A stretch of 64,000 nt of DNA, taken from IMG/VR virus record IMGVR_UViG_3300025009_000058. The stretch is one strand, 5' to 3'. Below the pieces are notes generated by a model. The model did not search any database and was not told the DNA's origin. It worked only from the letters and a program-made list of their open reading frames with translations. The position numbers and the translations under genes were made by a program. How positions within the stretch are numbered: the stretch's first letter is position 1; the number at the start of each line of letters is the position of its first letter. Origin of the DNA: a virus (lineage: Duplodnaviria > Heunggongvirae > Uroviricota > Caudoviricetes). Shown in pieces: positions 33,921-63,474 of the stretch.

Positions 33921-34688
33921 TTAAAATATATTACGATCTATCATATATGATCTATAAGCATGTAAACTATTAATAAGAACAATAAGTTTACCGGGTTCAA
34001 TTGGCACTCCATCAACTAGTTGATCATTAATTCTTTTAGTTACCCAATCATTTAATTTTCCAGCAAGGTACATGTCATTGATAAAATGCGTGTAAAAATC
34101 ACAACTCCTCATGTGATAAAACATAATCAATTTATTATCACGAATCAACCAAGAATAATCTAAAGAACAAGAAACCCGTCCAGTTTGTTCATTCATGTCT
34201 TGGTCAAGATCACTTGAATAGATATTTAATACTTGACGTCTTGAATTCCTATCTAATACAAGTTGATTAATAATACGAAGCAGAAGATTATTACGGAAGA
34301 AGCGCTCATTGTAAGTATATTCAAAACGACCATTAACCATAATTGGTTCCCAAACATACCGACGTAATTTCCAAGCTTCACCAGGATTGGGACTAATAGC
34401 TGATTCATCTACTCTTTCAAGAAACTCAACATTGGCCCATGCAAGAACGTTATCTGGTTGTTCTATTGAATCTTTATAGATAAAAGCATAAGCCTTTTTA
34501 ACTTCAGCTAATGGGTCTAGTATTGAGAATGTTTCTCCTTGAATTTCTTTAGTAGTATACTTCTCAACAAGTTCAGGTGTGTCAAGTTTTTTGTTCTGAA
34601 ATGACTTAAGTCTAACCTCTTGACCCATTTCGAATAAGTTTCTTTGTGTTTCTTTCACTGTCTCGTAAAGATTTTTGTAAATCCTCAT
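33921..34688 (-). CDS. T4 gp42-like deoxycytidylate 5-hydroxymethylase (ThyA-family)
   Basis: 255 aa. The C-terminal half aligns to ThyA/dCMP-hydroxymethylase motifs: SRRQVLNIYS, the catalytic Cys in RVSCSLDYSWLIRD, MRSCDF, FINDMY (Asp at the ThyA Asn177 / T4 gp42 Asp179 position) and GKLIVLINSLHAY. The alignment to T4 gp42 is from memory. Confidence 0.6.
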   Translation of the reverse strand: MRIYKNLYETVKETQRNLFEMGQEVRLKSFQNKKLDTPELVEKYTTKEIQGETFSILDPLAEVKKAYAFIYKDSIEQPDNVLAWANVEFLERVDESAISPNPGEAWKLRRYVWEPIMVNGRFEYTYNERFFRNNLLLRIINQLVLDRNSRRQVLNIYSSDLDQDMNEQTGRVSCSLDYSWLIRDNKLIMFYHMRSCDFYTHFINDMYLAGKLNDWVTKRINDQLVDGVPIEPGKLIVLINSLHAYRSYMIDRNIF

Positions 34689-34911
34689 ATTCTTCTCCTT
34701 TAACTATGAAGTCTTTAGTATTTATATAACGATTAAATTCAACAATTTCACCTTCAGCTAAGTCTCTTATAGCAAAACCATTTATATCTTGTATGCCAAA
34801 ATTTCTAAATACATTAATAGATTTTGATTTTTCTTTAAAAGAGATGGGCTCACCTTTTTTAATTTTGACTAGACATTTACATTTAAAAATGTATTTATGT
34901 TTATCTCCCAT
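34612..34911 (-). CDS. Hypothetical protein
   Basis: 99-aa ORF whose 3' end overlaps the downstream gene's start. One of the two starts is probably an internal Met. Confidence 0.35.
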   Translation of the reverse strand: MGDKHKYIFKCKCLVKIKKGEPISFKEKSKSINVFRNFGIQDINGFAIRDLAEGEIVEFNRYINTKDFIVKGEEYEDLQKSLRDSERNTKKLIRNGSRG

Positions 34912-35173
34912 TTCTAAATTCCTGTATTAGTTCTTTACCTAATTCAAATACCTCCTCAACTTTAAAATCAACTGTATTTAATGATATCCAAACCCCTTTT
35001 TTTGTTGGCAGCCAAGTACCTGTTTCAGAAAGAGTATATAACCTAATATCAAGATAAAACTTATTACTTAATTCCATTATTGTAAGTTTTATCTTGGTAC
35101 TGTCACTCATTTCAATTTCTTTACTTTGATGAGCAACACCAGTAAATTCTTTTTTTACTTTGCTATTTGCCAT
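34901..35173 (-). CDS. Hypothetical protein
   Basis: 90-aa ORF. Confidence 0.45.
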   Translation of the reverse strand: MANSKVKKEFTGVAHQSKEIEMSDSTKIKLTIMELSNKFYLDIRLYTLSETGTWLPTKKGVWISLNTVDFKVEEVFELGKELIQEFRNGR

Positions 35174-35460
35174 TTATCATCCAAGAAGATAAAAACTTCA
35201 ATTGGTATAACTTGCTTACCAAAAGATTTCCTAGTTAATTTCTTAAAATTTTGAATTGCTCTTCTACGATTTACTGCTCTTGTTGAGAATTCATATCCTT
35301 TTACATCACATTTATAAAGATTTAAATTCTCTTGAAGAGATATAACCTTTTGTTTACCATCAATCTCAACTTGTACACTTCCTTCTAAATCTAAATTAAA
35401 TTCAGTTACAATACTCTTTACATCTAGCTTTGATAATGAATGCTTAAATTTATCTTTCAT
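35155..35460 (-). CDS. Hypothetical protein
   Basis: 101-aa ORF. Confidence 0.45.
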   Translation of the reverse strand: MKDKFKHSLSKLDVKSIVTEFNLDLEGSVQVEIDGKQKVISLQENLNLYKCDVKGYEFSTRAVNRRRAIQNFKKLTRKSFGKQVIPIEVFIFLDDKWQIAK

Positions 35461-35490
35461 AAACCAGGAAAGGGACCTGAGTCCCTTTCA

Positions 35491-41144: not shown

Positions 41145-41402
41145 TTAAGCTTGAGGTGCAGATGCAATTGTTTCGCGTTTCTCTCTTAAAGCAGCTCTAA
41201 GTTCCTTCATGAATTTGGTCATTGCAGAACTGCCAGTATTTACTCTTTTGCCTGGAGCTTTCATACCCTTATCAAAAAAGCGAATAATATCTGTTTTCAA
41301 CTGTTCAGTAATTTCATCTAATTTACCACAAAGCAATTCACCTTGTGTTGGATCTACTACTGCAGTTTCTGTTGCAACGGATTCTGTTTTTACTTCTGCC
41401 AT
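41145..41402 (-). CDS. Small basic protein (paralogous 5' UTR to 36497..36943)
   Basis: 85 aa with RBS AAGGAG. It is the first gene of the minus-strand arm. Confidence 0.5.
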   Translation of the reverse strand: MAEVKTESVATETAVVDPTQGELLCGKLDEITEQLKTDIIRFFDKGMKAPGKRVNTGSSAMTKFMKELRAALREKRETIASAPQA

Positions 41403-41440
41403 TTGTTTGGCTCCTTTTAGTGGTTGAAATTAATTTATTA

Positions 41441-41464
41441 TTTGAGACAACAAATATATTACAT
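41441..41464 (-). promoter_or_regulatory. Promoter-like motif copy (ttgagacaacaaatatattacatc)
   Basis: 39 nt upstream of the 41402 start. Confidence 0.45.
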
Positions 41465-41698
41465 CTTTTATTTTTTGATGTGAAAAATTTTTAGAACCAT
41501 ACTTTATTGATAAAATATAAAATGTATCTTATTAGTGAAATAATTGATAATCAAAATATTCTAATAAATAAACTTCTTTCCAATGCGCTCGCCCGTAGTT
41601 GCTTTTATATTTTATATCAGAATGTTAATAATATAAATGTTAAGATCTTGTTTACCATAATTTAATTCAAATTTAATTTAAAAACACCCGTTGAACCG

Positions 41699-41728
41699 TT
41701 GACTTCATTAGTGAATATGTCATATAAC
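41699..41728 (+). promoter_or_regulatory. Candidate host sigma-70-type promoter (TTGACT-N18-TATAAC)
   Basis: Lies in the divergent intergenic region. It is bracketed by the 8-bp inverted repeat ttgaaccg (41691) / cggttcaa (41766) and the palindrome gtcaaaag..cttgtgtgttttgac. Confidence 0.35.
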
Positions 41729-41950
41729 AAGTCAAAAGTAACTTGTGTGTTTTGACTTTTTCTGGCGGTTCAAAAATCAATCTGTAAAAAGTTTAAAACT
41801 CTCAATTTGAAGAACACCGAGTTCGAAAATCCTAATATATTATATATAAATAAGGTTAATAATTTAAAACTAAAATAAGTTAAATAGCTTTTTAGTTAAA
41901 TATATTGGAATTTTCCGCAACTCTGAGTATACTTTATTTTATTGAGATTA

Positions 41951-42175
41951 TTAGCCACCAATCTTAAGTAGCTTTCCATCAGATTCAAGATAATTTTCAT
42001 AGTAGATATCAATTATTTCACTGGGAGAATCCTTTACATATATCATCAATCCTACAACTCCGGAGTTTTTATTGATATAACCTCTACCCTCTAATTGGAG
42101 TTCGCCTAAAGCAATTTTTTCTATAAGTTGCTCAACAGGGGTATTGGACGTTATTTTAATCTCTTTCTCATCCAT
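41951..42175 (-). CDS. Hypothetical protein
   Basis: 74-aa ORF in the divergent region. Confidence 0.35.
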   Translation of the reverse strand: MDEKEIKITSNTPVEQLIEKIALGELQLEGRGYINKNSGVVGLMIYVKDSPSEIIDIYYENYLESDGKLLKIGG

Positions 42176-42411
42176 TAATTAACCTTATCTCTTTTATAGT
42201 TTTCAATCATATTTGATAGTGTTTCTATACAATCTGTAAAATTATCTTCATTCTCCTGAGATTTTAACCATAAGTTAAATTCTGGATCATTTAGTAGTGA
42301 AACTAATTCTTCAAACAATATCTTATATTCTTCTGGATTCAATTAATTTCGCACCAATGGAGTAACTGATTGTTTAATTTTGTCACATCAATTTTGGAGT
42401 AAATTTTCAAT

Positions 42412-43724: not shown

Positions 43725-45070
43725 TTGAAGATTTTTTATCCGAGCAATTAGCAGTTGGTTTAATGCTTAATAGCCGAGAAGCTGCATTCAAAGGAATTGG
43801 TGAATTAGATGATGGAGATTTTGCAAATCCAAATTTTATCGTAGTATTTAGAGCAATTAGAAAAGTTATTGAGCAGCAAAAAGAAGTTGATATATTCTCA
43901 GTAAATTCAATGCTTGAGAATATGGGAAAACCTTTGAGTCTTGAAGAACTATTCAATATTGAAGACAAATTCTATGTTGAAGAGAAGTTTGATTCTATTA
44001 TTGAGATTTTACATGATAAGAAGAACAGAAGAATTACAGATCAAAAATTAAAAGAAGTATCAAAAAGGCTTAATAATGATAATACTTCTTTTGATACTAT
44101 TATAAGAGATATTGATTCAGTTTTTGATACAAAGACTTATTCATCAAATGTAGTCTCAGGTACAAACTATCTTGAGTTTAGAGCTCAACAGGATAAAGAA
44201 AAAAGAGAAAGAAAATGGATTCTTACAGGCTTTGAAGAAATTGATAATATTTTAACCTATAAAATATCAAGGGGGGAAATATCAGTAATTGCTGCAAGAC
44301 CCTCAAATGGTAAATCTGCCCTAAAAACTAATCTAATTAAAAATATGTGTGAGCAAGGAGTAGGTGTAGTAAACTATGCTCTTGAGCAAACAATGGAAGT
44401 TGAATCTGATAGACTAGAATCTTTAGTCAGTGGGATACCTGGTCAATTTATTGTAGATTGCCACATATGGGAAGATACAGATTTTAGAAAGATAAAATTA
44501 ATGGAAGCAAGAGAAAAGATTGCTACTTGGAATTACCATTTAATTGAAGGTATAAGTAAATCTCTCGCTGAGATAAAAAGTGAATTAAGAATGCTAAAGA
44601 GAAAAGGTATTGAAATTGCATTCTTTGATTTATTTGATAGAATAAAAGATGTTGTAAATAGTACATCAAATAAAGCTCAACAAGTAACAAAGTGTTTAAC
44701 TGAGATGCTTGCTATTGCAAAAGAATTAAATATACATATTTGTGTTATAGTACAATTAAATAGAGATCTTACTAAAAGAAAGAGTATGATTCCACAACTA
44801 TCTGATTTAAAAGATTCTGGAGCATATGAAGAAGTTGCAAGAACAGTATTCTTTTTACATTATCCAAAAGCTCATGATAGAAAATTAGTAGAATCAAACA
44901 TTACATGGATCATTGCAAAACAAAATAATGGGCCATTATTTGAGATGGATATTCCTTTCCAAGAAGACATAGGAAAATTTATTTCAAAAGATCCAAGTAA
45001 TCAAGGTATTAAGAAAAAAGGTCTAAGTCAACCATCTTCTAATATTGAGACTCAAAATGATAGAAAATGA
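43721..45070 (+). CDS. DnaB-like replicative DNA helicase
   Basis: 449 aa with a DnaB N-terminal domain. RecA-like core with Walker A IAARPSNGKSALKTNLI and QLNRDL. Confidence 0.8.
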   Translation: MIEDFLSEQLAVGLMLNSREAAFKGIGELDDGDFANPNFIVVFRAIRKVIEQQKEVDIFSVNSMLENMGKPLSLEELFNIEDKFYVEEKFDSIIEILHDKKNRRITDQKLKEVSKRLNNDNTSFDTIIRDIDSVFDTKTYSSNVVSGTNYLEFRAQQDKEKRERKWILTGFEEIDNILTYKISRGEISVIAARPSNGKSALKTNLIKNMCEQGVGVVNYALEQTMEVESDRLESLVSGIPGQFIVDCHIWEDTDFRKIKLMEAREKIATWNYHLIEGISKSLAEIKSELRMLKRKGIEIAFFDLFDRIKDVVNSTSNKAQQVTKCLTEMLAIAKELNIHICVIVQLNRDLTKRKSMIPQLSDLKDSGAYEEVARTVFFLHYPKAHDRKLVESNITWIIAKQNNGPLFEMDIPFQEDIGKFISKDPSNQGIKKKGLSQPSSNIETQNDRK

Positions 45071-50555: not shown

Positions 50556-50781
50556 TTTTTGTAAACAATGTCATGATAAATTATTTAAACCTCTTGAGGA
50601 TTCAACTAAGTATGATTTTTATGGTTTAAGCACTCCTGAAGATGATAAAAATGAATTATATCCAGTTGTATTATGCGAAGGTTGTAAAATACAAGGTGGA
50701 TACATACAAGTTAACTCAAAAGGTGAATGCATAAGTCCAGATTGTGGCTCTCATGGAGGAAAGATTTATCCAATAACATAA
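50548..50781 (+). CDS. Zinc-ribbon protein
   Basis: 77 aa, CKQCH...CEGCK...CISPDCGSHGG. Confidence 0.45.
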   Translation: MADFCKQCHDKLFKPLEDSTKYDFYGLSTPEDDKNELYPVVLCEGCKIQGGYIQVNSKGECISPDCGSHGGKIYPIT

Positions 50782-52908: not shown

Positions 52909-53552
52909 TGCAAACTTTTTTATTGTCTGATAAAGAATTTGCTGAAACTATCTATTTCAAAGACTTATGTAAAGGCTTAGAATTTCTTGATAATAAGCGT
53001 TTAAATAAACAAATTCTTGAAGCATACCAAATCTTACAAATTTTAATAAAAGGAACTGGTAGATATTTGAGTCATCCTGTGGTTCAAATGTGGATGAGCT
53101 CAGAGAATCTTTTAGCAAGATATGGTTTTGAATGTTGTAAAGCTTTTCAATCAAAAAGTGCTATAAAGACTATACATAAGTATATGAGCTTCTTTGAAGA
53201 ATATTGTTATACAGCACGACATGCTTATTTTAAAGAACCCTTTTGGTTAGAAAATCAGAATTTTTTACATGAATTAGTAAAGTCTCATAAATCTAATCTT
53301 CAATATAAAGACTCAAGTTATTATCAATTTAATGATATTGACTCAAATCTTTTATATGTTTGGCCTTCATATTATGTATTTGATAAAAATAATGGATTTA
53401 GAATCTCTTATGAAGGTAAAGAAGCTTTACTAAAAACATGTAAAAGGAAAGCAATCAAAGAAGATATTTATCAATCTGAAATATTAAACTCATTCATGTA
53501 TTATGATGGAAATAAATGGGTAAGAGCACTTCATTTAATGGAGAAACAATGA
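52908..53552 (+). CDS. Hypothetical protein
   Basis: 214-aa ORF in the nucleotide-modification cluster. Confidence 0.5.
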   Translation: MQTFLLSDKEFAETIYFKDLCKGLEFLDNKRLNKQILEAYQILQILIKGTGRYLSHPVVQMWMSSENLLARYGFECCKAFQSKSAIKTIHKYMSFFEEYCYTARHAYFKEPFWLENQNFLHELVKSHKSNLQYKDSSYYQFNDIDSNLLYVWPSYYVFDKNNGFRISYEGKEALLKTCKRKAIKEDIYQSEILNSFMYYDGNKWVRALHLMEKQ

Positions 53553-54538
53553 AATTTTCTGTTGGTGGTTTTCAATGCGGCATAGGTAATTTATTAGGCT
53601 TCCAATTAGAAGGTTATAATGTGCTTTTTAATGTGGATAATAGAGAGTTTATACATAAAGGTAAGGTAGCTTTTTATGATAATTTCCCTAATATAAGTAT
53701 TAGTAATGATTTTGATGATGGATTAGTAAATTATCCTACTCCAACAGTTTTAATATCATCTCCATCCTGTAGTCAAATTTCTGCATTAGGAGTGAAAAGA
53801 AAGGATCGTTCAAGTTTAAAGACTCTTGGCATTAAAGATTTTGAATTTTATCATGCTCTAGTAAAATTACTTTATACAAATGCTCCATATATTGTTATGG
53901 AATATTTACCTTCTCTCCTTAGGTTTTTTGAAGTAAGGCATAATGAACTTTATTGTATATCAACAAAAGAATCATTCTCATATCCAGATCATTATCGTGT
54001 TCAAATTGTTAATGTTGATTCACAAATATATGGAACGCCACAGTCTAGAAAACGTTTATTTATTTTCTTTTCGCTAAAGAATTTAGATTTTATGTATCTT
54101 AAACCTTCTACAATGCTCGCTGGTAAAAAAGCTGGAGAAGTTTTAATTGTATTAGATCTTTTAAGAAAAGATAGAAAATTATATGATGATGAACATCCTA
54201 ATCATTCTGAAGAAAGAAAACAAGGTTTTAATAAGCTCTTACCAGGTGATAGTTTTTATGGAACTCAAAATAATAAAAGATTAGATCCTGAAAAGATTTG
54301 CCCAGTTATTGCATCATCAAAAACTCAATATGTACATCCTTGGCATGATAGAGTACTTACACCAAGAGAAGCGGCTACATTTCAAGGATTCCCATTAGAT
54401 TTTCAATTTGGGCATATAAGTTTTTCAACAAAGCTGGATTTAATTGGTAGAAGTATACCAGTACAAGTTGCTGCTCATATAGCAAGTGAGATTAAATACA
54501 ATTATGAAAGAAATATTGATTTAGGAGTTATAGGATGA
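53549..54538 (+). CDS. DNA C5-cytosine methyltransferase-fold protein, paralog 1
   Basis: Motif I FQCGIGNLLGF, motif IV SSPSCSQISALG (PC), motif VI MEYLPS (ENV-like), motif VIII QSRKRLF and the C-terminal LTPREAATFQGFPLDFQF are present. Confidence 0.6.
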   Translation: MKFSVGGFQCGIGNLLGFQLEGYNVLFNVDNREFIHKGKVAFYDNFPNISISNDFDDGLVNYPTPTVLISSPSCSQISALGVKRKDRSSLKTLGIKDFEFYHALVKLLYTNAPYIVMEYLPSLLRFFEVRHNELYCISTKESFSYPDHYRVQIVNVDSQIYGTPQSRKRLFIFFSLKNLDFMYLKPSTMLAGKKAGEVLIVLDLLRKDRKLYDDEHPNHSEERKQGFNKLLPGDSFYGTQNNKRLDPEKICPVIASSKTQYVHPWHDRVLTPREAATFQGFPLDFQFGHISFSTKLDLIGRSIPVQVAAHIASEIKYNYERNIDLGVIG

Positions 54539-54849
54539 GTAATTTTCAATCGATACTAATAACAATTAATGGTTCTAGAATTAAAGAGATGGCTTCTAGA
54601 AAAATGGTATTATTACAAACTGTTGCAGCTAAATTAGCTGAACAAATGGAAGATTTAAGAAGAGGCCATCTTAATGCAGACGATCGTCAACTTATTAAAG
54701 AAAAGAAAGATTTTGAGTTATTGAAAATAGATGACTCTGTTAACTTCTGTCAAGTTTTAATAGATTTTATTCCAAATGAAAAGGAATATGAATTAAGTGC
54801 GAGAGAATTAAATTTCTTACGTAATGATAAGATAATTTCTTATGAATGA
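54535..54849 (+). CDS. Hypothetical protein
   Basis: 104-aa ORF. Confidence 0.4.
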   Translation: MSNFQSILITINGSRIKEMASRKMVLLQTVAAKLAEQMEDLRRGHLNADDRQLIKEKKDFELLKIDDSVNFCQVLIDFIPNEKEYELSARELNFLRNDKIISYE

Positions 54850-55606
54850 AATCCTAGTAAATCAAGTTTATCAATGTGATAATCTATACTTACTCAAAGA
54901 ATTACCAAGTAAGTGTATAGATTTGATATATGGGGATGTGTTATTTGGTACTGGAAAAGATTTTAAGGAGTTTAAAGATTTAAAACCTGTGAGATTAGAC
55001 ATATTGGAATTCTATACTCCAAGATTAATAGAAATGCATAGGGTTCTTAAACCAACTGGTTTATTATACTTTCATTGTGATTCAATCATTTCCCATTGGA
55101 TAAGAATACTTATTGATGGTATTTTTGGTGATCATAATTTCAGAAATGAAATAATATGGTACTATAATTCTGCACCTCGTAAGAAAAAAGATTTTGGAAA
55201 AAGACATGATACTATATTAAGATATACAAAAACTGAGAACTATTATTTCAACCCAGATTCTAAATATGTAAGACAACCATATTCAGAAACTGCACCAAGA
55301 GGTTATGATAAAGAAAAATATTATGATCAAAGAGGTAAAATATTAGACGATGTATGGACCATTTCAATTCTAGGTCAAAATGATAAAACAGAGAGAACTG
55401 GTTACCCTACTCAAAAGCCAAAATCTTTATTATATCCAATTATAGACTCAAGTTGTCCAAGTGATGGAGTATTCTTTGATCCTTTTGTTGGTTCAGGAAC
55501 TTCTGTTGTTGTTGCAAAAGAATTAAATATAGATTTCATTGGGTGTGACATAAATCATAATGCTATTTCTTATACTATAGAGAGGTTAAAGAATGTTAAT
55601 TGCTGA
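54842..55606 (+). CDS. Beta-class N6A/N4C DNA methyltransferase-like protein with a degenerate DPPY motif
   Basis: The C-terminal YPTQKPKSLL...FFDPFVGSGTSVVVA is present. The N-terminal IDLIYGDVLFG aligns to VDLIFADPPYN, so the catalytic Pro-Pro-Tyr is replaced by Val-Leu-Phe. Confidence 0.6.
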   Translation: MNEILVNQVYQCDNLYLLKELPSKCIDLIYGDVLFGTGKDFKEFKDLKPVRLDILEFYTPRLIEMHRVLKPTGLLYFHCDSIISHWIRILIDGIFGDHNFRNEIIWYYNSAPRKKKDFGKRHDTILRYTKTENYYFNPDSKYVRQPYSETAPRGYDKEKYYDQRGKILDDVWTISILGQNDKTERTGYPTQKPKSLLYPIIDSSCPSDGVFFDPFVGSGTSVVVAKELNIDFIGCDINHNAISYTIERLKNVNC

Positions 55607-55895
55607 CATAATTAAATTAGCGGAATCAGATTTTTCAGAGTGTTTGGAAACATTAAGAAAAAAGGGGAATGACTATGCTGCAGAGATTGATGGTCTTTCT
55701 AATTTTAAATATTCCGGTGATTTTGCTGGAGTTACACAAGAGCAATCTTGTAAAGTACTAATTGGTACTAAGCTTGCAAGATTAAGAGAATTAACTAATA
55801 ATCCAAACAAAGTTGTTGCAAATGAATCAGTAAATGATACTATCAAAGATTTAATAAATTATTTAATCTTATGGAAAAGTATTAGAAATGAGTAA
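55593..55895 (+). CDS. Hypothetical protein
   Basis: 100-aa ORF. Confidence 0.4.
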   Translation: MLIADIIKLAESDFSECLETLRKKGNDYAAEIDGLSNFKYSGDFAGVTQEQSCKVLIGTKLARLRELTNNPNKVVANESVNDTIKDLINYLILWKSIRNE

Positions 55896-56910
55896 AATTC
55901 TAAGCACTAAAGATGAATTAATACCACATCCAATATCGAAAGTTTCTTTTGGTAGTATCTATTGTGGAGCAGGTTTTCCTATTTTAGGAGCACTTTGGGC
56001 AGGTATGAATGCTAGATGGGGTCTAGAACCACGACCTTATTTTAATATAAAAACTTTCCGTAGCAATTTTCAATCTATTATGTATTCAAGTGAACTGGAA
56101 GCTTTTCATCAATACCCAGTTGATGTTATTTGGGGAAGTCCAAGTTGTGGAGAGATATCATCAAGTTCTAGAAATTCCAAGAATGCAAAAACTATGGCTA
56201 TGAAAGAATTTCAAGATTTTGAATATGTAAGATTTATATTAGAAATTATTGCTAGAAAACCAAAAGTATTCATTCTTGAAAATATACCTTCTGTGAAAAA
56301 CTTTGTTCAATTTAATTCTACTCCTGCTGGATTTATATTAAAGCATCAAATCTCAAAAGAAGAAGTTCCTCTGTATGATTATTATATTGAAGAGCATAGG
56401 ATTACCCCAACTGAAGTTGGTATACCTCAAGTGAGAGATAGGCTATTTACAATTGGTAGTAGATTTCCTTTTAGGTTTATGTTAGAACCACCAGAAAAAG
56501 ATTATAGAGCTGAACTATCTATTGGGCCTATCTTTGAAGAACTTGATGACCTTAGAAGACAAGGTGTTACTTTACATAATGATCATTTTCCAAAACATTC
56601 AGAAGAAAAAATTGAAAAAATGTCTCGTATTCGTCCTGGAGAAGGTCTCTACGGAGGAATCAACAACAAAAGACTGGACTCAACAAAATGTGGTCCAGTT
56701 ATCATGTCTTCAGCAACTAGGTACATACATCCTTGGGAACATAGACTCCTTACAGGAAGAGAATCAGCATGCCTTATGGGACTACCTTTAGACTTCTTGT
56801 TTATTGGAAGCGAAAATAAAGTATTAGATCAGATAGGGAAAGGTATTGTACCACAAGTTGGTGAATATATTCTAAAACAAGTAAAAAAGTATTTGGAAAA
56901 AGAGTCATGA
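55888..56910 (+). CDS. DNA C5-cytosine methyltransferase-fold protein, paralog 2
   Basis: IYCGAGFPILGA, GSPSCGEISSSS (PC), ILENIPSV (ENV), QVRDRLF (QxRxR) and LLTGRESACLMGLPLDFLF are present. Confidence 0.65.
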   Translation: MSKILSTKDELIPHPISKVSFGSIYCGAGFPILGALWAGMNARWGLEPRPYFNIKTFRSNFQSIMYSSELEAFHQYPVDVIWGSPSCGEISSSSRNSKNAKTMAMKEFQDFEYVRFILEIIARKPKVFILENIPSVKNFVQFNSTPAGFILKHQISKEEVPLYDYYIEEHRITPTEVGIPQVRDRLFTIGSRFPFRFMLEPPEKDYRAELSIGPIFEELDDLRRQGVTLHNDHFPKHSEEKIEKMSRIRPGEGLYGGINNKRLDSTKCGPVIMSSATRYIHPWEHRLLTGRESACLMGLPLDFLFIGSENKVLDQIGKGIVPQVGEYILKQVKKYLEKES

Positions 56911-57214: not shown

Positions 57215-59083
57215 ATGAATAAAATAAGTACTGAACAATTCAAGAAAGCTACTTCAGAGATAATGAAAGGTATAAATACCCCTCATAATAGAGAGATTGT
57301 TAAAGAATATTATAGAGGTAATGAGAATGTATGGCTTGATTCAGCAAATAATCCTTTAATAAGACCTAGACTTGATTTTGTAAAAAATGCAGTATCAACT
57401 CTTAGTGCTGTAAAAGGTAAAGATATCAAAATTCTTGATATTGGAGCTTGGTCTGGTTTGTTTTCAAATGAGCTTAAAATGTTGGGTTATAATAAAGTTC
57501 AATGTCTTGAATTAAATGTAAAGGCATGTCACTTAGGAGAATTTAGATATGCTTTACCCTACATCAATGCAGATGTTGAAACATATAAAACATTTGAAAA
57601 GTTTGATGTTATCATAATGGGAGAGATTATTGAACATTTAATCAATCCAGCTGAGACAATTAATAAAGTTAAATCTTGGTTATCTGATAATGGACTTTTA
57701 TTAATAACTATACCAAGAGAAGAACATATGTGGCCAGGAGTTACTGGAAATCCAGCAGATGAAGGATCTGAGCATATTAACCAGATATCAATTGAGGATC
57801 TTGAAAAACTAGGTATGGTTATTACAGATACTATAACCGCTGCTAACAATGAAATGTCATGGCATGTTGGGTATATAGTGAATTCAGTTATTGAAACAAA
57901 ATTGAAAGAACCAGAAAAACCAACGTTTCACCTATTAGGCTTAGCAGATTATAAACTTGGATGGGAAGAAGCACCTAATAATCCATTCAATACTAAAATT
58001 ATTTATATGTGCAGGATGCTTAAAGAATTAGACTATAAAGTAATTGTTTATGGTGTTGAAGGAAGCAAAATTGATGAGAAGATTGATGAATTTGTTTCTG
58101 TTGTTTCTGAGAGCATGCATAATAAAATACATGGCAAAAGAGATAAAAATGCTCTTGACCATCTAACTAATCAAGAAGGTCTTGATTTTGAAGCTTTTAT
58201 TAAGAATACAATTGAAAGTCTTGAGTCAAGAGTTAAAAAGCATGATTTTATTCTAAATTTCTTTGGGGATGCTTTTAGACCTATCACAGATGTCTATGCA
58301 TCTCATTGTATTTGTATTGAACCTGGAATAGGACATGGTGGATCATATTTACCGGATAGAATTTTTGAATCATACACATGGGCAACAGCTTGTTACTATA
58401 GGTGGAATAAAAACTCTCCCTCATATTTTCCAAACAACTATGATTATGTTATCCCAGCATATTTTAATGTAGATGATTACCCATTTGAAGCAGAGAAAGA
58501 TGATTATTATGTATTCTTGGGAAGGAAAACTTGGGGTAAAGGCTTATCAGTTGCTATTGATGTCACTCACCAATTAGGCAAAAAACTTGTAGTTATAGGC
58601 GGTGGTAGTATATTTGATCCTGACATTCAAGCGGGTTCAGTATATAAAGTATTTGATCATGTAGTTGAAGTAGGAGTATTACCACTTAAGCAAAAAGTTA
58701 AATACTTATCAAAAGCTAAAGCTCTAATCTATTTTAGTCTATATGTTGAGCCATTTGGTCATGCTCCAATTGAAGCCATGTTATGTGGTACTCCAATTAT
58801 TACCAGTGACTATGGAGCTTTTGTTGAAACAAACCTCCATGGAATAACTGGTTATAGATGTAAAACTATGAATGATATTTACTGGGCTTGTAAATCATCT
58901 GAGAAGCTTAATCCAGAAAAGATAAGAAAATATGCTGTTGAAAATTATGGGTTAGAGAACATAAAAGAAATGTTTAAAAGATATTTTAAAGATACTCATG
59001 ATTTAAGAACAGGAAAAGCAGACTGGTATACAATTGACAAACAAAATCCTGCAAACCTTGAATATCTAAGGAAAAAAATATGA
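57215..59083 (+). CDS. Bifunctional class-I SAM methyltransferase / GT-B glycosyltransferase fusion
   Basis: The N-terminal MTase has motif I ILDIGAWSGLF and motif II FDVIIMGEIIEHL. The C-terminal GT1/GT4 has the motif EPFGHAPIEAMLCGTPIITSDYGAFVE. Confidence 0.65.
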   Translation: MNKISTEQFKKATSEIMKGINTPHNREIVKEYYRGNENVWLDSANNPLIRPRLDFVKNAVSTLSAVKGKDIKILDIGAWSGLFSNELKMLGYNKVQCLELNVKACHLGEFRYALPYINADVETYKTFEKFDVIIMGEIIEHLINPAETINKVKSWLSDNGLLLITIPREEHMWPGVTGNPADEGSEHINQISIEDLEKLGMVITDTITAANNEMSWHVGYIVNSVIETKLKEPEKPTFHLLGLADYKLGWEEAPNNPFNTKIIYMCRMLKELDYKVIVYGVEGSKIDEKIDEFVSVVSESMHNKIHGKRDKNALDHLTNQEGLDFEAFIKNTIESLESRVKKHDFILNFFGDAFRPITDVYASHCICIEPGIGHGGSYLPDRIFESYTWATACYYRWNKNSPSYFPNNYDYVIPAYFNVDDYPFEAEKDDYYVFLGRKTWGKGLSVAIDVTHQLGKKLVVIGGGSIFDPDIQAGSVYKVFDHVVEVGVLPLKQKVKYLSKAKALIYFSLYVEPFGHAPIEAMLCGTPIITSDYGAFVETNLHGITGYRCKTMNDIYWACKSSEKLNPEKIRKYAVENYGLENIKEMFKRYFKDTHDLRTGKADWYTIDKQNPANLEYLRKKI

Positions 59084-61203
59084 AAAATAAGATTGCAATT
59101 TTAGTAATTAATTATGAAACCCCAGAATTAACAAAAAACTTAATGAATCAAATTAAGACATTTGATGAATCAAAGTTTGATTTAACTATTTGGGATAATA
59201 GTTCTTCAAATAAGATGACAGAAGCTACTGAACTTAGCACCCGTAATCTTGGATTCGATCAAACTGTATTAAAATGGTTAAGCTGTAAAGAAGATTATGC
59301 TGGATATTGGCTTTTAAATAGTGATTGTGTTTTGGATTTACAATATAATTACTTAGATAAATTCTTAAATTTGATTAATCATGCTGATAATATTGGTATA
59401 GTCACAACAAAGGTTAATGACACTCTTAATGGATTTATATCTCCCCAGAGAATTACACAAAAGGGTATATTTCTCACTAGATATTCTGATTTGCAATCTG
59501 CAGTTTTGTCAAATTCATTTGTAAAAGCTTTCTTAAAAGGTTTAAAAGGGAAAAAATTAAATTACTTTCATGGCGGATTAGATTTAGATTTTGCATTATT
59601 TGCTGAACGAGAAAATTTCTTAATATTAGTAGATTCTACTATGGAAATCAATCATTTGGTTGGAAAATCAACGGATAAAGCGATACCCATTAATGATTTT
59701 ACCAATTTCTTGATTGAAAGGTTTGGTAATTTATCAATACTTGACAAATATACCAATTCTACTGATACTATTAGATTTAATGAAGGTAATGCAGAACTAT
59801 TAAGTGCTACTTTGATTGAAAGATATTCAATGCCTGTACCAGAAAATAAAACACCTTTAAAAGCAGTCATTGAATTAAAATCAAAAAAACTACAAGGACA
59901 AATGGTAGATTGGGGAATTATTAATTTTAATAACGGAATTAAGCTTTTTAATGAAATTAAATATGCAGAAGCTATTCCATATCTTAAAATAGCTGCTTAT
60001 GCAGGAATACATCAAGCATATGCATATTTAAGTAGTTGTTATGATCAGACTGGTCGATTCTCAGAAGGATCTGAGTTTTTTAAACCATTAGTTAATCTAG
60101 AAGTTTATGATGATGTTAGGTCAAGGTATGAATATTTAACTGCTCAAAGAGACACTTATGAAGTTGTAAAAAGAAAACAACAGTTAATAGTTTTCTATGT
60201 AAAACCTGATGCTGGGCATACTTGGGACGCAGATAACACTGAGAAAGGAATTGGCGGATCTGAAATTGCAGTAATACAACTTTCAAAAGAACTTGCTAAA
60301 TTAGGTCACTTAGTTTATGTTTTTAATAATTGTGGTAATCCAAAAATCATTGATGGTGTAGCTTGGGAACCTATAGAGAAATTTGATGCTTTTGAAAAGA
60401 TAAATGAAATACATACTTTAATAGTGTCAAGATTACCAGAATTTAGATTTGTGAATCCAAAGACTAAAGTTTATTTTTGGGCTCATGATTTAAACTATTA
60501 TAACAGGATTAATCCTATTAATATAAACTATTTTGATAAATTTTTAGTGTTATCAAGATATCATTATAGATTCTTTACGGCTGCATATCCATTTATACCT
60601 ACTAGTAAAATGGAGATTTTTGCTAATGGTTTAGATTTATCAAGATTTAACCAAAAAGTAGAAAGAATACCTACAAAATTAATATATTCAAGTAATCCAG
60701 ATAGAGGCATGACTGAGTTGATACCCATTTTTGAAGAACTAAAAAAATGGGATAATAGATTAGAATTACATGTTTTTGGATACTATCCAGATAATATTAG
60801 AAAACATCCAAATTATTGGAAAGAAACACCTGGATTAATTTATAGAGGATATCATAATCAGAAAGATCTTGCAAAAGAATATATGTCTAGTAAATTATGG
60901 TTATATCCTTGCACATGGTTAGAAACATTTTGTATTACAGCCATTGAAGCTCAAGCAGCAGGAACTCCAGCAGTTGCTTCAGATTGGGGTTGTTTGAGAG
61001 AAAGAGTTGGAAATGCCGGTATTATTGTTGATGGTTGGATAAAAAATAAAGACCATAGAGAAAATTTTATAAATGCTGTTAAACATTTATTAACCAATGA
61101 TATTGACTGGTATGATTATCATCAAAAAGGATTAGAACAGTCTAAGAACTTATCTTGGATTAATGTTGCAAAAAGATTCTTAGAATTGGGAGATAAATTA
61201 TGA
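59080..61203 (+). CDS. Multi-domain glycosyltransferase (GT2-like N-terminus, TPR-like middle, GT-B C-terminus)
   Basis: N-terminus IAILVINYET...DLTIWDNSSSN. C-terminus TFCITAIEAQAAGTPAVASDWGCLRERV (GT1/GT4 E..G..lEA.a.G.P motif). Confidence 0.6.
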   Translation: MKNKIAILVINYETPELTKNLMNQIKTFDESKFDLTIWDNSSSNKMTEATELSTRNLGFDQTVLKWLSCKEDYAGYWLLNSDCVLDLQYNYLDKFLNLINHADNIGIVTTKVNDTLNGFISPQRITQKGIFLTRYSDLQSAVLSNSFVKAFLKGLKGKKLNYFHGGLDLDFALFAERENFLILVDSTMEINHLVGKSTDKAIPINDFTNFLIERFGNLSILDKYTNSTDTIRFNEGNAELLSATLIERYSMPVPENKTPLKAVIELKSKKLQGQMVDWGIINFNNGIKLFNEIKYAEAIPYLKIAAYAGIHQAYAYLSSCYDQTGRFSEGSEFFKPLVNLEVYDDVRSRYEYLTAQRDTYEVVKRKQQLIVFYVKPDAGHTWDADNTEKGIGGSEIAVIQLSKELAKLGHLVYVFNNCGNPKIIDGVAWEPIEKFDAFEKINEIHTLIVSRLPEFRFVNPKTKVYFWAHDLNYYNRINPININYFDKFLVLSRYHYRFFTAAYPFIPTSKMEIFANGLDLSRFNQKVERIPTKLIYSSNPDRGMTELIPIFEELKKWDNRLELHVFGYYPDNIRKHPNYWKETPGLIYRGYHNQKDLAKEYMSSKLWLYPCTWLETFCITAIEAQAAGTPAVASDWGCLRERVGNAGIIVDGWIKNKDHRENFINAVKHLLTNDIDWYDYHQKGLEQSKNLSWINVAKRFLELGDKL

Positions 61204-61394
61204 CACAAGAACAAAAAGAGCAAGTTTCTGAATTTTTATTATATGAGATAGCATCTTCTCCATTTGCATCATTTATAGGGTTACATTATTTTCAAAACAT
61301 AACAGCAATATATTTTGCTTGGAAGGTTAAAAGAAAATTTAATAAATATTTATTATTTAAGGCTAAGAAAAATGGAATCAAACAGAGTAGTTAA
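61200..61394 (+). CDS. Hypothetical small protein
   Basis: 64-aa ORF coupled to the upstream GT. Confidence is low. Confidence 0.3.
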   Translation: MTQEQKEQVSEFLLYEIASSPFASFIGLHYFQNITAIYFAWKVKRKFNKYLLFKAKKNGIKQSS

Positions 61395-61627
61395 TACATA
61401 TTTAGGTATGATTGAAGATGAGAAAACTTGTTTAAAAGTAAACAAAGTCAAACTAAAATTAGCACTTCTAGGCTATGGTCAACATCAATTAGAGGGAATA
61501 GGATACGTAGGTATATTAGAAATGCTTATGAAAGAAGAGAAAAATAAACGTAGAATTATATTTATTCAATTAAAAATACTCTATTATAATTTTATTAAAT
61601 GGTTTCCTATTAAAATTAGTATAAGAA

Positions 61628-63019
61628 TTGAACACGAAAGAATTAAAAGATAAAGTAAAGATTGAAGATATCATATCTCAATATATAAAGATTGAGCGTG
61701 ACTCAAACTATTCTGACATGAGGGCACAATGCCCATTCCATGAGGGAGATCAAAATCCCTCTTTTAGTGTAAATGGTGTTAAACAACTTTTTTATTGCTT
61801 TGGGTGTAAAAAAGGTGGCGATGTATTTAAGTTTGTAGAATACATTGATAAAATTAATTTTCAAGAAAGTATAAAAAGAGTAGCAAAACTTGCAGGTATT
61901 GAAGTTGAACTTGGAGATCTAGATTTACTTAATCAAATCACTGAATATTACCACGAGCAGATCAATCTACCAAGAGGTATTAAGTTTTTAGATGATAGAG
62001 AAATTCCCGATGAGATGGCTATTGAATTTAAACTCGGCTATGCAAATGAAAATCTTTATGCTCTTTATAATGCTTTTCCAGATTTTAAACAACAGTTGAT
62101 AGATTTAAACTTCATTGATTCAAAATATGCAGGAACAGTAAACGAGATAAATCCTTCTAGATTTTCAAACAGGATTATGATTCCTATTACGTCGAACATT
62201 GGTACCATTGGATTTTCTGGCAGAACTTTAATTGACAGTGAAGATAAATATAAAAATATTAAAAATAATCGTTTCTTCAATAGGAGAGAAATGGTATTTG
62301 GTTTACCTCAAGCAAGAAAATCTATTATTGAGATGGGAAACTGCTATTTAGTAGAGGGCTTTCTTGGGAAAATAAGAATGCATCAAAGACATTATTTTAA
62401 TACGGTTTCTATCTTTGGTTCTGCATTAACTATTGAACAAGCAAGACTTATAAGGAGATATACTAATAAAGTAACATTTTTATTTGATGGAGATGAGGGA
62501 GGTTTTACAGCTTGTATGTTTTCTGCTAAGTCATGTATTATGGCAGGTTTAGATTTTGATATATTAATACTTCCAGATGGATTAGATCCTGATGATTATC
62601 TAAAAAAGTCAAAAAATAAAATAGAAACATTAGATAGTATTGATAAAGTAATCTTCTTGAAAGAAGTATTTATTAAATCAGATATACTAGATTGTGTTGA
62701 GAAAGCAGATAATATTGAAAAAATTCCAGTTGATATTATTGATGGCTTTAAGATTAATTTGGATATGGTAAGGAAAAACAGGACTACGTCAATTGTCAAA
62801 AACTACAATATGAAAAATCTGACAAAATTCTCCCACATGTTAATGCTTATTGAATCACACCCAAAACTTGAAGTTTTATTAACTGATGAAGAAAGAGTAG
62901 AAATTGATAAAGAAAAAAATAATATGGATTTATTAGAAAATATAATAGATGGTAATAATTTTTATACTAAAGTCAAAGATCCAGAAAAACTATTTAACAC
63001 AATGAGGAACTCAAAATGA
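61628..63019 (+). CDS. DnaG-type DNA primase
   Basis: Has the CHC2 zinc finger CPFHEGDQNPSFSV...CFGCKKGGDVFKF and a TOPRIM region (..YLVEGF.., FLFDGDEGG). Confidence 0.8.
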   Translation: MNTKELKDKVKIEDIISQYIKIERDSNYSDMRAQCPFHEGDQNPSFSVNGVKQLFYCFGCKKGGDVFKFVEYIDKINFQESIKRVAKLAGIEVELGDLDLLNQITEYYHEQINLPRGIKFLDDREIPDEMAIEFKLGYANENLYALYNAFPDFKQQLIDLNFIDSKYAGTVNEINPSRFSNRIMIPITSNIGTIGFSGRTLIDSEDKYKNIKNNRFFNRREMVFGLPQARKSIIEMGNCYLVEGFLGKIRMHQRHYFNTVSIFGSALTIEQARLIRRYTNKVTFLFDGDEGGFTACMFSAKSCIMAGLDFDILILPDGLDPDDYLKKSKNKIETLDSIDKVIFLKEVFIKSDILDCVEKADNIEKIPVDIIDGFKINLDMVRKNRTTSIVKNYNMKNLTKFSHMLMLIESHPKLEVLLTDEERVEIDKEKNNMDLLENIIDGNNFYTKVKDPEKLFNTMRNSK

Positions 63020-63474
63020 GTAGAATCACAAGACAGGATTATTTTATGGCTATTGCACAATTAACAGCATTAAGAGGAACTTGTAATAGATTACAAGTTG
63101 GTTGTGTTTTAGTAAATGATAATAGAATTGCTTCTGTGGGATATAATTCATCAGTAAAAGGCACAGCTCATTGTATAGATGTAGGCTGTTTAATGGTTGA
63201 TGGGCATTGTAAAAGATGTCCTCATGCTGAAGTAGCAGCAGTTGCTAACCTAACAAGAAGATATCCTCAACTAAAAGCATATATAACACATCAACCTTGT
63301 TTAGATTGTCTAAAATTACTTGTAACTGCAAATGTAACAGAAATATATTATATTAAGGAATATCAATCTGCTGAAAGAAACAGAGTACTTGATGAAATCT
63401 CTCAAGCTCATCCTAATTTTATTATGCAACAAATTATCCCAATAACTAATCTTTTATTAGGTAGTTCTAGGTGA
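63016..63474 (+). CDS. dCMP deaminase (CDA-fold)
   Basis: Zinc ligands CPHAEVAAV and HQPCLDCLKLL (HAE / PCxxC) are present. Confidence 0.75.
   Translation: MSRITRQDYFMAIAQLTALRGTCNRLQVGCVLVNDNRIASVGYNSSVKGTAHCIDVGCLMVDGHCKRCPHAEVAAVANLTRRYPQLKAYITHQPCLDCLKLLVTANVTEIYYIKEYQSAERNRVLDEISQAHPNFIMQQIIPITNLLLGSSR

Follow-up and report, generated by a model that had tools for sequence, protein, structure and literature searches.

A putative pre-replicative cytosine modification module with two divergent ThyA-superfamily paralogs in an uncultured phage

Substitution of Asn by Asp at the position of E. coli N177 in homologues of thymidylate synthase (TS, ThyA) is well established as a change that directs these enzymes to dCMP (Hardy & Nalivaika 1992; Liu & Santi 1992; Graves 1992, as cited in PMC8670742), and the same switch has been associated with cytosine-modified viral contigs (PMC8670742). 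Enzymes of this type occur in phage T4, where the dCMP hydroxymethylase (dCH) gp42 is accompanied by the gp56 dCTPase/dUTPase, the gp1 dNMP kinase and the Cd dCMP deaminase; in the Xp12/PaMx74 5-methyl-dCMP synthase cluster (MazG, ThyA with Asp, deaminase and DHFR); and in bacterial secondary metabolism, where the ribose preference of the CMP hydroxymethylase MilA follows a rule of Ala at S167 and Lys at R126 (PMC5175136). A third known chemistry of Asp-type ThyA homologues is the flavin-dependent 5-hydroxylation carried out by 5-hydroxy-dCMP synthases, whose signature is D169N (PMC13326640).

The locus considered here (Table 1) lies in a window, i.e., the whole 64,000-nucleotide stretch of caudoviral DNA that was analyzed (IMG/VR record IMGVR_UViG_3300025009_000058), which derives from an uncultured, low-GC, ~123-kb PolA-type phage. 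It is unusual in that two very different, apparently cytosine-specific thymidylate-synthase relatives, like1 and like2, are kept beside DNA cytosine methylases in one phage. On balance, the locus is probably best explained as a module that modifies cytosine in the nucleotide pool before replication. All ORFs named in a preliminary description of this DNA were recovered, and the T4-style deoxycytidine replacement proposed there stands as far as the gene set is concerned; it does not stand in that a gp42-family member is missing, the glycosyltransferases (GTs) are not conserved, and two C5-cytosine DNA methylase-like genes and an adenine methylase inside the cluster had been overlooked.

Table 1. 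Features of the predicted cytosine modification locus (window coordinates)
Feature	Coordinates	Strand	Remarks
ThyX, flavin-dependent thymidylate synthase, predicted dTMP source	32629-33534	minus	PF02511 E 1.8e-52
like1, ThyA-superfamily paralog 1	33921-34688	minus	255 aa; intact ORF; weak PF00303 match
MazG / dimeric-dUTPase type all-alpha NTP pyrophosphatase, candidate dCTPase/dUTPase	49650-50300	plus	PF08761 dUTPase_2
like2, ThyA-superfamily paralog 2	51463-52356	plus	297 aa; intact ORF; PF00303 46 bits
P-loop (d)NMP kinase, Tmk-like	52402-52908	plus	weak match; directly 3' of like2; GxxxxGKT motif
C5-cytosine DNA methyltransferase-like protein 1	53516-54538	plus	PF00145 81 bits; motif IV SPSC, motif VI EYL
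Small ORF	54535-54849	plus	104 aa; between methylase genes
beta-class N6-adenine (CcrM/PRK11524-like) DNA methyltransferase	54842-55606	plus	PF01555 E 3.5e-44; NCBIfam adenine-specific models
Small ORF	55593-55895	plus	100 aa; sub-threshold Nmad1/DUF1599 ('nucleotide modification associated domain 1')
C5-cytosine DNA methyltransferase-like protein 2	55888-56910	plus	PF00145 81 bits; motif I YCGAG, IV SPSC, VI ENI, VIII QVRDR
SAM-methyltransferase + GT1 (GT-B) glycosyltransferase fusion	57215-59083	plus	candidate; domain matches
GT4/GT1 (GT-B) glycosyltransferase, second	59080-61203	plus	707 aa; candidate; domain matches
dCMP deaminase, ComEB-like	63016-63474	plus	HAE and PCxxC zinc motifs

Both paralogs retain the catalytic Cys previously ascribed to them, C174 in like1 (codon 34167-34169) and C140 in like2 (codon 51880-51882). 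The Asp claimed at the N177 column is likewise present in both, the codons having been verified: D205 of like1 (codon 34074-34076) pairs with D179 of T4 dCH in the HMMER alignment, and D171 of like2 (codon 51973-51975) with the Asn of B. subtilis ThyA. As this column is invariant in 121/121 like1 and 25/25 like2 homologues, a chance substitution can be set aside. The columns of C146, R166, D169, Y94, W80 and R126 are conserved in both families, and position 143 is an invariant Arg. Thus, the like1 signature reads R171 (E. coli L143 column), C174 (C146), R194/S195/D197 (R166/S167/D169), H201 (G173) and D205 (N177), with a helix, 'HFIND', similar to the 'GFRND' of T4 dCH, while that of like2 reads R137 (L143), C140, T141 (H147), R160/T161/D163 and D171 (N177), within an 'LLPYDV' helix similar to 'GLPYDV' of the PaMx74 5-methyl-dCMP synthase and 'GLPFNI' of ThyA.

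The PF00303 score of like1 (19.8 bits) lies under the Pfam gathering score, and both paralogs fall far under every NCBIfam thymidylate-synthase cut-off. The AF2 models (pLDDT 94.5 for like1 and 92.4 for like2) recover cytosine-nucleotide enzymes, namely MilA, AfhB and T4 dCH, as their first structural matches; for like1 the top Foldseek matches are MilA, the HY126 AfhB dCMP hydroxylase and T4 dCH, and like2, which bears a five-helix C-terminal extension, matches MilA across its full length (TM 0.74-0.78). In profile searches both are about equally distant from AfhB, MilA, T4 dCH and ThyA, the like1 profile reaching AfhB at 6.5e-19, MilA at 1e-15 and T4 dCH at 4e-14 in the PDB; as a single sequence, like1 reaches T4 dCH at an E of only 0.066 (HMMER), so that the earlier label 'gp42-like' for this paralog was overstated. 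With this equidistance, and with Arg rather than Asp/Glu at position 143, neither paralog belongs to the gp42 family; as judged from their sequences, the two are new clades. Members of these clades had no match in the portion of the PMC8670742 supplements available to us. The like2 family is rare, with ~30 cluster representatives at E<=1e-30 among 1.84 billion. Inteins, which are typical of indispensable genes, are present in both families.

The residues also bear on substrate and product. Both families depart from the MilA ribose rule, having Ser/Thr and Arg where MilA has Ala176 and Lys133', which indicates deoxy substrates. That MilA is the best structural match of both models, and that like2 shares its five-helix C-terminal domain, could be taken to mean that the paralogs act on CMP in nucleoside-antibiotic-like small-molecule or RNA-precursor chemistry, like MilA/BcmA, rather than in DNA modification; given these residues, the location of the genes among those for phage replication and dNTP metabolism, and the conserved NTP pyrophosphatase partner, this is highly improbable. 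A flavin-type 5-hydroxy-dCMP synthase identity, a chemistry that the preliminary description had left out, was also considered and is disfavoured, as the D169N signature is absent and Asp is retained in 119/121 like1 and 25/25 like2 homologues. The published product rule for position 143 yields no answer here, Arg being neither acidic, as in known hydroxymethylases, nor hydrophobic, as in ThyA; it is weakened further by the Asn that the PaMx74 5-methyl-dCMP synthase has there. The C-terminus of like1 ends ~10 residues past the H207/Y209 equivalents, and both paralogs are without the TS C-terminal lid, which positions the cofactor for hydride transfer. This absence weakly favours hydroxymethylation, such that hydration to 5-hydroxymethyl-dCMP may be the likeliest outcome, at least for like1.

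The paralogs might instead make chemically different 5-substituted dCMPs, e.g., 5-hydroxymethyl-dCMP by like1 and 5-methyl-dCMP by like2, resulting in two modified cytosines in DNA or the diversion of one product elsewhere. They share only 23% identity (hhalign E 1.5e-39), differ at active-site columns 147, 167, 173, 176 and 207, carry helices of the T4 dCH type and the PaMx74/ThyA type, respectively, and have been kept together across deep divergence; in phmmer searches like2 pairs with PaMx74 (5e-8) and like1 with T4 gp42 (3e-4), and not the reverse. However, the TS-type lid kept by the PaMx74 methylase is missing in like2, the helical domain of like2 resembles that of a hydroxymethylase, MilA, and DHFR was not found in the window. 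We know of no phage that modifies cytosine in two ways before replication, and regard two distinct products as possible but doubtful.

Turning to the enzymes that would serve such a module in the nucleotide pool, the assignments of the preliminary description hold throughout. The MazG-like protein scores 29.4 bits against PF08761 (GA 22.9), a family that T4 gp56 also matches, and E 3.8e-26 against phrog_12184; its ExxE(21)ExxD metal motif is intact, and pairwise similarity to T4 gp56 or PaMx74 gp53 was not found. In 77/80 viral loci a like1-type gene is preceded, at 2-3 kb upstream, by a homologue of this protein, matching a gp56/gp42-like pairing, and the like1 and MazG-like pair is widespread, occurring in the cultured Mycobacterium phage Muddy and Clostridium phage P21. 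The best PDB relative of the Tmk-like kinase is SPbeta YorR, and a kinase also adjoins like2 in contigs L009, L013 and L018. In related viral contigs like2, like1, a C5-methylase and the dCMP deaminase occur together, and the order like2, kinase, methylase, primase, deaminase is kept, with the deaminase 3' of the primase. ThyX is bona fide, with 184.9 bits against TIGR02170 (NCBIfam cut-off 87.9) and the RHRx7SxR motif. It is unrelated to the ThyX of a 117-kb relative, and by sequence the two are independent acquisitions. This agrees with the earlier claim that dTMP is not the product of the paralogs.

The retention of a dCMP deaminase near the paralogs might nevertheless reflect a route to thymidylate, in which one of the Asp-type paralogs would methylate dCMP and the 5-methyl-dC nucleotide would serve as substrate for the deaminase, yielding a dT nucleotide in line with a proposal for Xp12; genomic cytosine would be left largely canonical and protected site-specifically by the C5-methylases. 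Such a route would accord with the presence, on viral contigs, of 5mC-selective deaminases beside ThyA homologues of the Asp type (bioRxiv 10.1101/2024.12.05.627091), with the intact, conserved C5-methylases, and with the fact that neither ThyX nor canonical ThyA was seen <=10 kb from most like2-bearing loci. Yet ThyX is present in both this phage and the 117-kb relative, the lid expected for reductive methylation is absent from both paralogs, the methylated nucleotide enters DNA in Xp12 and PaMx74, and a dedicated MazG-like enzyme and kinase beside the paralogs fit pool replacement better. We hence hold this route to be distinctly unlikely.

The methylase genes constrain how far any replacement of cytosine could go. 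The first C5-methylase-like gene also occurs in L009 and L013, where homologues of the 104-aa ORF, which has no Pfam match, sit between both C5-methylase genes. In PDB alignments, the Ser-Cys of the second protein falls where a solved bacterial C5-cytosine methyltransferase (3g7u) and DNMT1 have Pro-Cys, and the family of this protein comprises 19 members at 52-77% identity, all on like2-bearing contigs. The persistence of apparently intact C5-methylases at this divergence argues against complete C5 replacement of every cytosine: some cytosines would stay free at C5, or the enzymes would act on the modified base. The adenine methylase was not found in the relatives compared. The 100-aa ORF falls short of PF07659 (23.6 bits; GA 25), and Nmad1 is also a faint match in the precomputed annotation of contig L105. 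GATC is rarer than expected (observed/expected 0.69, z -5.4), a hint that the phage DNA is not restriction-immune.

These observations bear on the full T4-like model advanced earlier, i.e., complete replacement of dC by hydroxymethyl-dC followed by DNA glycosylation through the sugar-transferring enzymes. Two GT-B genes are indeed present, in the same co-directional run between the methylases and the primase; other GTs lie near by in relatives (GT2 in L003 and L021), and GT-B enzymes glycosylating 5hmC-DNA exist and are linked to thymidylate-synthase homologues in metaviromes (bioRxiv 10.1101/2023.12.21.572611). Against this, the GTs, including the methyltransferase fusion, have no counterpart in L009 and L013, the syntenic relatives closest to this phage, and the fusion itself resembles glycan-building enzymes. 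The best cultured homologues of its GT domain (36% identity) belong to the T4-like cyanophages S-CAM7 / ACG-2014f. To our knowledge, T4-like cyanophages are without dCMP hydroxymethylase. With the C5-methylases also speaking against total replacement, this model appears unlikely.

For modification in the nucleotide pool, a pathway can be proposed from homology, active-site conservation, fold and gene co-occurrence, with all enzyme activities predicted. The MazG/gp56-type pyrophosphatase would convert dCTP, and probably also dUTP, to the monophosphate. In the anciently diverged like1 and like2, the conserved Cys would attack C6 of dCMP and the one-carbon unit of methylene-tetrahydrofolate would be added at C5, cytosine presumably being selected by the Asp at the N177 position and the 2'-deoxy sugar by Ser/Thr167 and Arg126; the retained Asp169 would favour folate over flavin hydroxylase chemistry. 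The adjoining kinase may then phosphorylate the modified product for incorporation by the phage PolA, while dTMP would be supplied separately by the dCMP deaminase and ThyX, and the C5-methylase-like enzymes and the adenine methylase would form a post-replicative layer.

The locus can thus be placed among known systems. In the MetaGPA homologues on cytosine-modified metavirome contigs (PMC8670742), position 177 is likewise Asp and position 147 is likewise other than His, and, as here, an NTP pyrophosphohydrolase, dCMP deaminase and DNA ligase are found alongside; that study describes neither pairs of Asp-type paralogs nor an association with C5-methylases. AfhB / RB69 gp48 (PDB 9iqu/9iqc), the top PDB sequence-profile match of both families, have Asp at 177 and a short C-terminus as here, but differ in the diagnostic D169N and in Glu at 143. 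MilA (PDB 5jnh/5b6d) likewise shares the Asp at N177, but has an acidic residue at 143 (PMC13326640) and is a bacterial enzyme, whereas like1 and like2 are phage genes. With the Xp12/PaMx74 cluster there are in common an Asp-type ThyA, a pyrophosphatase and a dCMP-deaminase-family protein, in addition to the 'LPYDV' helix; PaMx74 differs in having an enzyme with the TS C-terminal segment and, next to it, a DHFR, and its pyrophosphatase is without detectable similarity to the MazG-like protein. In its gene set the T4 system follows the same logic, with a pyrophosphatase of the same Pfam family, and like1 shares with gp42 a short C-terminus and the 'xFxND' helix. The similarity is nonetheless remote, and gp42 has Asp at 143 and Gly at 173 where like1 has Arg and His. 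Further, T4 uses Td and Frd where this phage has ThyX, and this phage adds C5-methylases and is without T4-type alpha/beta-glucosyltransferases; and T4 has one cytosine-specific ThyA homologue, whereas this phage has two.

Every open reading frame named in the preliminary description was found where it had been placed, and the protein assignments in the table are taken from Pfam, PHROG and NCBIfam scans of the window. The window is low in GC (~29–30%), and its left-arm genes lie on the minus strand and its right-arm genes on the plus strand, with both GC and AT skew flipping sign at the divergent switch, a possible origin or site of early promoters. The gene set is surrounded by a replication module of DnaB, an SF2 helicase, a 5'-3' exonuclease and an ATP ligase; PolA and RecA lie a little outside the window. 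An acyl-carrier-protein-like ORF, adjoined by a Cys-rich one, sits between the MazG-like gene and like2, the second of two ThyA-superfamily paralogs, and two small ORFs interleave with the methylase genes. One tRNA-like gene, called by ARAGORN, has a four-base anticodon (gaaa) but lacks an amino acid assignment; at gathering thresholds Rfam returned neither tRNAs nor any other family for the window.

Features of the window and the basis of their assignment
Feature	Coordinates	Strand	Basis or remark
tRNA-like gene	31382-31455	-	ARAGORN
SPFH/Band-7 protein	31499-32446	-	
ThyX	32629-33534	-	TIGR02170, 184.9 vs cut-off 87.9 bits; RHRx7SxR motif
like1 (255 aa)	33921-34688	-	weak ThyA-family match
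Divergent switch	41400-42400		
Sigma-70 region-2-like protein	45045-45716	+	kept beside like2/DnaB in relatives
All-alpha NTP pyrophosphatase (MazG-like)	49650-50300		PF08761
Acyl-carrier-protein-like ORF (81 aa)	50310-50555	+	DSL phosphopantetheine motif; PF00550, 38.2 bits vs GA 20.8
Cys-rich ORF (77 aa)	50548-50781		
like2 (297 aa)	51463-52356	+	clearer ThyA-family match than like1
P-loop Tmk-like kinase	52402-52908		
T4 endonuclease V-like pyrimidine-dimer glycosylase (MSMEG_6728 family)	52908-53552	+	overlaps C5MT1 start
C5MT1, C5-cytosine DNA methylase-like	53516-54538		
Small ORF	54535-54849	+	L009 and L013 (relatives) have a counterpart, likewise between both C5-methylase genes
Adenine-type methylase	54842-55606		
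Small ORF	55593-55895	+	sub-threshold match to Nmad1/DUF1599 ('nucleotide modification associated domain 1')
C5MT2, C5-cytosine DNA methylase-like	55888-56910		
Two large GT-B glycosyltransferases	57215-61203		first is a fusion with a SAM-methyltransferase domain
DnaG primase	61628-63019		
dCMP deaminase	63016-63474		HAE and PCxxC motifs

Megablast of 8 kb recovered no near-identical phage and tblastn with the SF2 helicase gave remote matches only; by these searches the phage as a whole appears to be without a close cultured relative. Dozens of public contigs of 50–200 kb, drawn from several sources, encode identical proteins. In one NCBI record the like2 protein is assigned to a 'Candidatus Nanoarchaeia archaeon' MAG, probably through mis-binning of a phage contig.

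The central observation of the preliminary description, that both paralogs combine the catalytic Cys with an Asp at the column of E. coli ThyA N177, is confirmed by HMMER alignments to solved structures and by a codon check: D205 of like1 pairs with D179 of T4 dCMP hydroxymethylase (dCH), and D171 of like2 with the Asn of B. subtilis ThyA. When the paralogs are aligned with E. coli ThyA, T4 gp42, RB69 gp48, PaMx74 gp52 and 144 homologues, this column is Asp in all 121 members of the like1 family and all 25 of the like2 family, and on the aligned sequences a chance substitution is ruled out. Under the rule that Asp177 marks dCMP use, both paralogs qualify. Both families also conserve C146 (the nucleophile, C148 in T4), R166, Y94, W80 and R126 (E. 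coli numbering throughout). Common to them are, in addition, an 'NPGxAW' motif and, at the third residue N-terminal to the catalytic Cys, an Arg that never varies; this Arg falls in the L143 column (121/121 and 25/25), columns 143–146 being ungapped.

Several product and substrate signatures can be set against this background. An Asn in place of D169 is diagnostic of flavin-dependent 5-hydroxy-dCMP synthases (PMC13326640). This mark of the AfhB/RB69 gp48 type is absent from both paralogs, with Asp retained in 119 of 121 like1-family members (D197 in like1) and 25 of 25 like2-family members (D163 in like2); RB69 gp48, aligned alongside them, has the Asn. An acidic residue at L143 (D145 in T4) has been proposed to let in water for hydroxymethylation (PMC13326640), giving a rule by which acidic residues indicate hydroxymethyl and hydrophobic ones methyl products. 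The acidic residue of gp42-type hydroxymethylases is missing from both families; the rule is uninformative here, because both have Arg and the PaMx74 5-methyl-dCMP synthase has Asn. The ribose preference of the CMP hydroxymethylase MilA is linked to Ala at S167 with Lys at R126' (PMC5175136). Neither paralog has this pair: columns 167 and 126 are invariantly Ser and Arg in the like1 family, and Thr (20/25, with Ser or Val in the remainder) and Arg (23/25) in the like2 family. Deoxy substrates are therefore to be expected for both.

The two active sites differ from each other at column 147 (Ser in like1, Thr in like2), 167 (Ser, Thr), 173 (His, Leu), 176 (Asn, Tyr) and 207 (His, Gly/Ala), as do their helix motifs: 'HFIND' of like1 resembles 'GFRND' of T4 dCH, and 'LLPYDV' of like2 resembles 'GLPYDV' of PaMx74. 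In light of these differences, it is possible that the paralogs would make two different products.

The label 'gp42-like' formerly given to like1 does not hold up in profile searches against the PDB, which put it at roughly the same distance from T4 dCH (4e-14) as from other branches, namely AfhB (6.5e-19), MilA (1e-15) and ThyA (~4e-13). For like2, AfhB, ThyA and MilA are about equally distant, and T4 dCH falls outside the top 60 PDB matches. Asp177 speaks against a canonical ThyA identity, as do NCBIfam scores far short of every thymidylate synthase cut-off (at best 44 against 174 and 41 against 108); for like1 even the Pfam gathering score is out of reach. Between the two families the distance is smaller (hhalign E 1.5e-39), yet at 23% identity. 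Thus, by sequence comparison neither paralog appears to fit a characterised branch of the superfamily.

AlphaFold2 models of high confidence (pLDDT 94.5 for like1, 92.4 for like2) have as their best structural matches enzymes acting on cytosine nucleotides, i.e., MilA, the HY126 dCMP hydroxylase AfhB and T4 dCH. At the C-terminus, like1 stops ~10 residues past the H207/Y209 equivalents, much like the short T4 dCH and AfhB, whereas only like2 has the five-helix C-terminal domain of MilA (helices 205-209, 211-221, 235-249, 264-278 and 290-296; full-length TM 0.74–0.78 over ~310 columns). Both differ from the 5-methyl-dCMP synthase PaMx74 gp52 in lacking its ThyA-like, folate-closing C-terminal segment. 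The DHFR that accompanies the Xp12/PaMx74 type, as well as TET/JBP, carbamoyltransferase and hmU-kinase-type hypermodification genes, was not found by Pfam among the window ORFs scanned, a set that is not exhaustive for the smaller ORFs or for the contig beyond them. The missing thymidylate synthase segment weakly favours a non-reductive chemistry, which would be hydroxymethylation, for both paralogs.

The MazG-like protein scores 29.4 bits for PF08761 (GA 22.9), against which the T4 dCTPase/dUTPase gp56 itself scores 25.4, and retains the ExxE...ExxD metal motif (E71..E74, E99..D102); pairwise it shows no detectable similarity to T4 gp56 or PaMx74 gp53, and it has no PDB match. Relatives of like1 are encoded on 447 IMG/VR stretches. 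The broad alignment proved too diverse for the locus search, and with a narrower one a MazG-like homologue was found 2–3 kb upstream in 77 of the 80 best like1-type loci, a redundant set made up mostly of gut-phage contigs. The pair also occurs in cultured phages. In Clostridium phage P21 a single gene separates the MazG-like gene (E 6e-39) from the annotated 'thyA', and the therapeutic Mycobacterium phage Muddy (KF024728; L104 1928-4600) has a run of gp49 (Tmk), gp48 (MazG-like, annotated 'dUTPase'), gp47 and gp46, adjoined by PolA, in which gp46 is a like1-type 'thymidylate synthase' with R143/H173/D177. This pairing, in databases and in cultured phages, together with the metal motif and the PF08761 match shared with gp56, suggests that like1 and the MazG-like protein behave as a gp42/gp56-like core, and the Muddy cassette predicts a cytosine-directed activity. 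The window's kinase has similarity to RB69 gp45 at the P-loop level only. A literature search on modified DNA in Muddy and in the C. perfringens phages found no report, and no like1- or like2-type sequence was matched among those tested in the paper supplements consulted.

The like2 family is, on the other hand, rare, with ~30 cluster representatives at E<=1e-30 among 1.84 billion (24 by word-indexed search). In 11 of the 12 IMG/VR loci encoding like2, like1 lies within 10 kb of it. A C5-methylase-like gene comes next in every evaluable like2 locus, followed by primase and dCMP deaminase, and in six loci (L010, L011, L012, L015, L017 and L018) it overlaps the end of like1. The same set recurs on a more distant 124-kb contig (L021), where a PolA with an N-terminal uracil-DNA glycosylase domain (13209-15941) lies just downstream of the block. 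A relocation of like1 to the opposite arm, beside the ligase, sets apart the window and its two closest relatives, the methylases remaining by like2 and the kinase. Phages with like1 only have no C5-methylase. Since every like2-bearing contig belongs to one broad lineage, the association reflects deep retention (35–60% identity) and not independent convergence. Inteins, which are typical of indispensable genes, were seen with LAGLIDADG endonucleases near the catalytic-Cys region of a like1-type gene (L016 12040-13986) and a like2-type one (P0164, 640 aa), and the DnaB of a 117-kb relative (L003) has an intein signal too.

That relative also bears on the supply of dTMP. Its ThyX (8965-10014), which overlaps the start of like2, has no detectable similarity to the ThyX of the window and occupies another genomic position, implying that ThyX was acquired twice, independently. 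These two acquisitions lend support to the earlier proposal that dTMP does not come from the Asp-type paralogs.

Two C5-methylase-like genes, with conserved motifs, had been overlooked in the preliminary description, and they are the main complication for a replacement of dC, for an enzyme that adds to C5 has no substrate if all DNA cytosines are already substituted there. C5MT1 and C5MT2 each score 81 bits for PF00145 (GA 22). The 19 detectable homologues of C5MT2 (52–77% identity) all reside on like2-bearing contigs, and it is better conserved than like1 or like2. Its motifs I, VI, VIII (QxRxR) and IX/X are intact, and C5MT1 has EYL in place of ENV in motif VI. In nearly all lineage members motif IV reads SP[S/D]C and not Pro-Cys, the catalytic Cys being present; PPC occurs only in the distant members L016 and L021. 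Three accounts of these genes remain: cytosine replacement may be partial and leave them a substrate, the methylases may be confined to particular contexts or time windows, or their substrate may be the modified base.

The sugar-transferring enzymes invoked as downstream steps are present, but a role on DNA finds no specific support: they have only generic GT1/GT4 Pfam matches, the nearest cultured homologue of the first catalytic domain is a T4-like cyanophage glycosyltransferase (36% identity), and they are absent from the syntenic relatives L009 and L013. They may nevertheless have such a role, as GT-B DNA glycosyltransferases are diverse and frequently accompany thymidylate-synthase homologues (bioRxiv 10.1101/2023.12.21.572611).

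Nor does sequence composition serve as a proxy for modification. CpG is strongly depleted (rho 0.36 over the whole window) and GATC is rarer than expected (observed/expected 0.69, z -5.4). The CpG depletion is common to all like1-bearing loci, with an extreme in Clostridium phage P21 (0.11), and is not seen in T4, RB69 and PaMx74, the DNA of which is fully modified. CpG depletion is accordingly rejected as a modification marker, and both it and the GATC avoidance are probably host-type signatures.

Taken together, the gene set put forward as a T4-style replacement pathway stands as an observation, but its full interpretation is only partly supported, given the lack of gp42 membership, the C5-methylases and the non-conserved glycosyltransferases. 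The most likely reading, somewhat more probable than not, is that one or both paralogs modify cytosine at the level of dCMP, prior to replication, with the MazG-like protein, kinase, deaminase and ThyX controlling the pools; hydroxymethyl would be the best guess for the substituent. A bolder and rather unlikely proposal is a composite system without described precedent, in which two ThyA-superfamily enzymes, from new Arg143/Asp177 clades, would each give dCMP a different C5 group ahead of replication, and the C5-methylase-like enzymes with their atypical Ser/Asp-Cys motif IV would join the pathway, either methylating residual cytosines or converting a pre-installed group on DNA through C6-attack chemistry. 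Were this composite system real, Muddy and other cultured carriers of like1 and the MazG-like gene would have an unrecognised modified cytosine.

Survival of phages in the face of restriction, CRISPR and modification-dependent defences depends on modified bases, and the enzymes that make them are a resource for epigenetic sequencing. The products of like1 and like2 would test the present residue rules and might expose a new modification or a genome of mixed modifications. As like1 and its pyrophosphatase partner, abundant in gut viromes, occur also in cultured phages such as Muddy and those of C. perfringens, the question is directly testable for like1. To our knowledge, each known cytosine pathway has one Asp-type ThyA homologue, whereas this lineage stably keeps two, which have little in common with each other or with any characterised enzyme and bear an invariant Arg143 where the residue is believed to influence product chemistry. 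Three features, none of which was found described in the searchable literature, are new with respect to published systems: the stable pairing of deeply divergent Asp-type paralogs, the Arg143 signature common to both, and their tight linkage to atypical C5-methylase-like genes.
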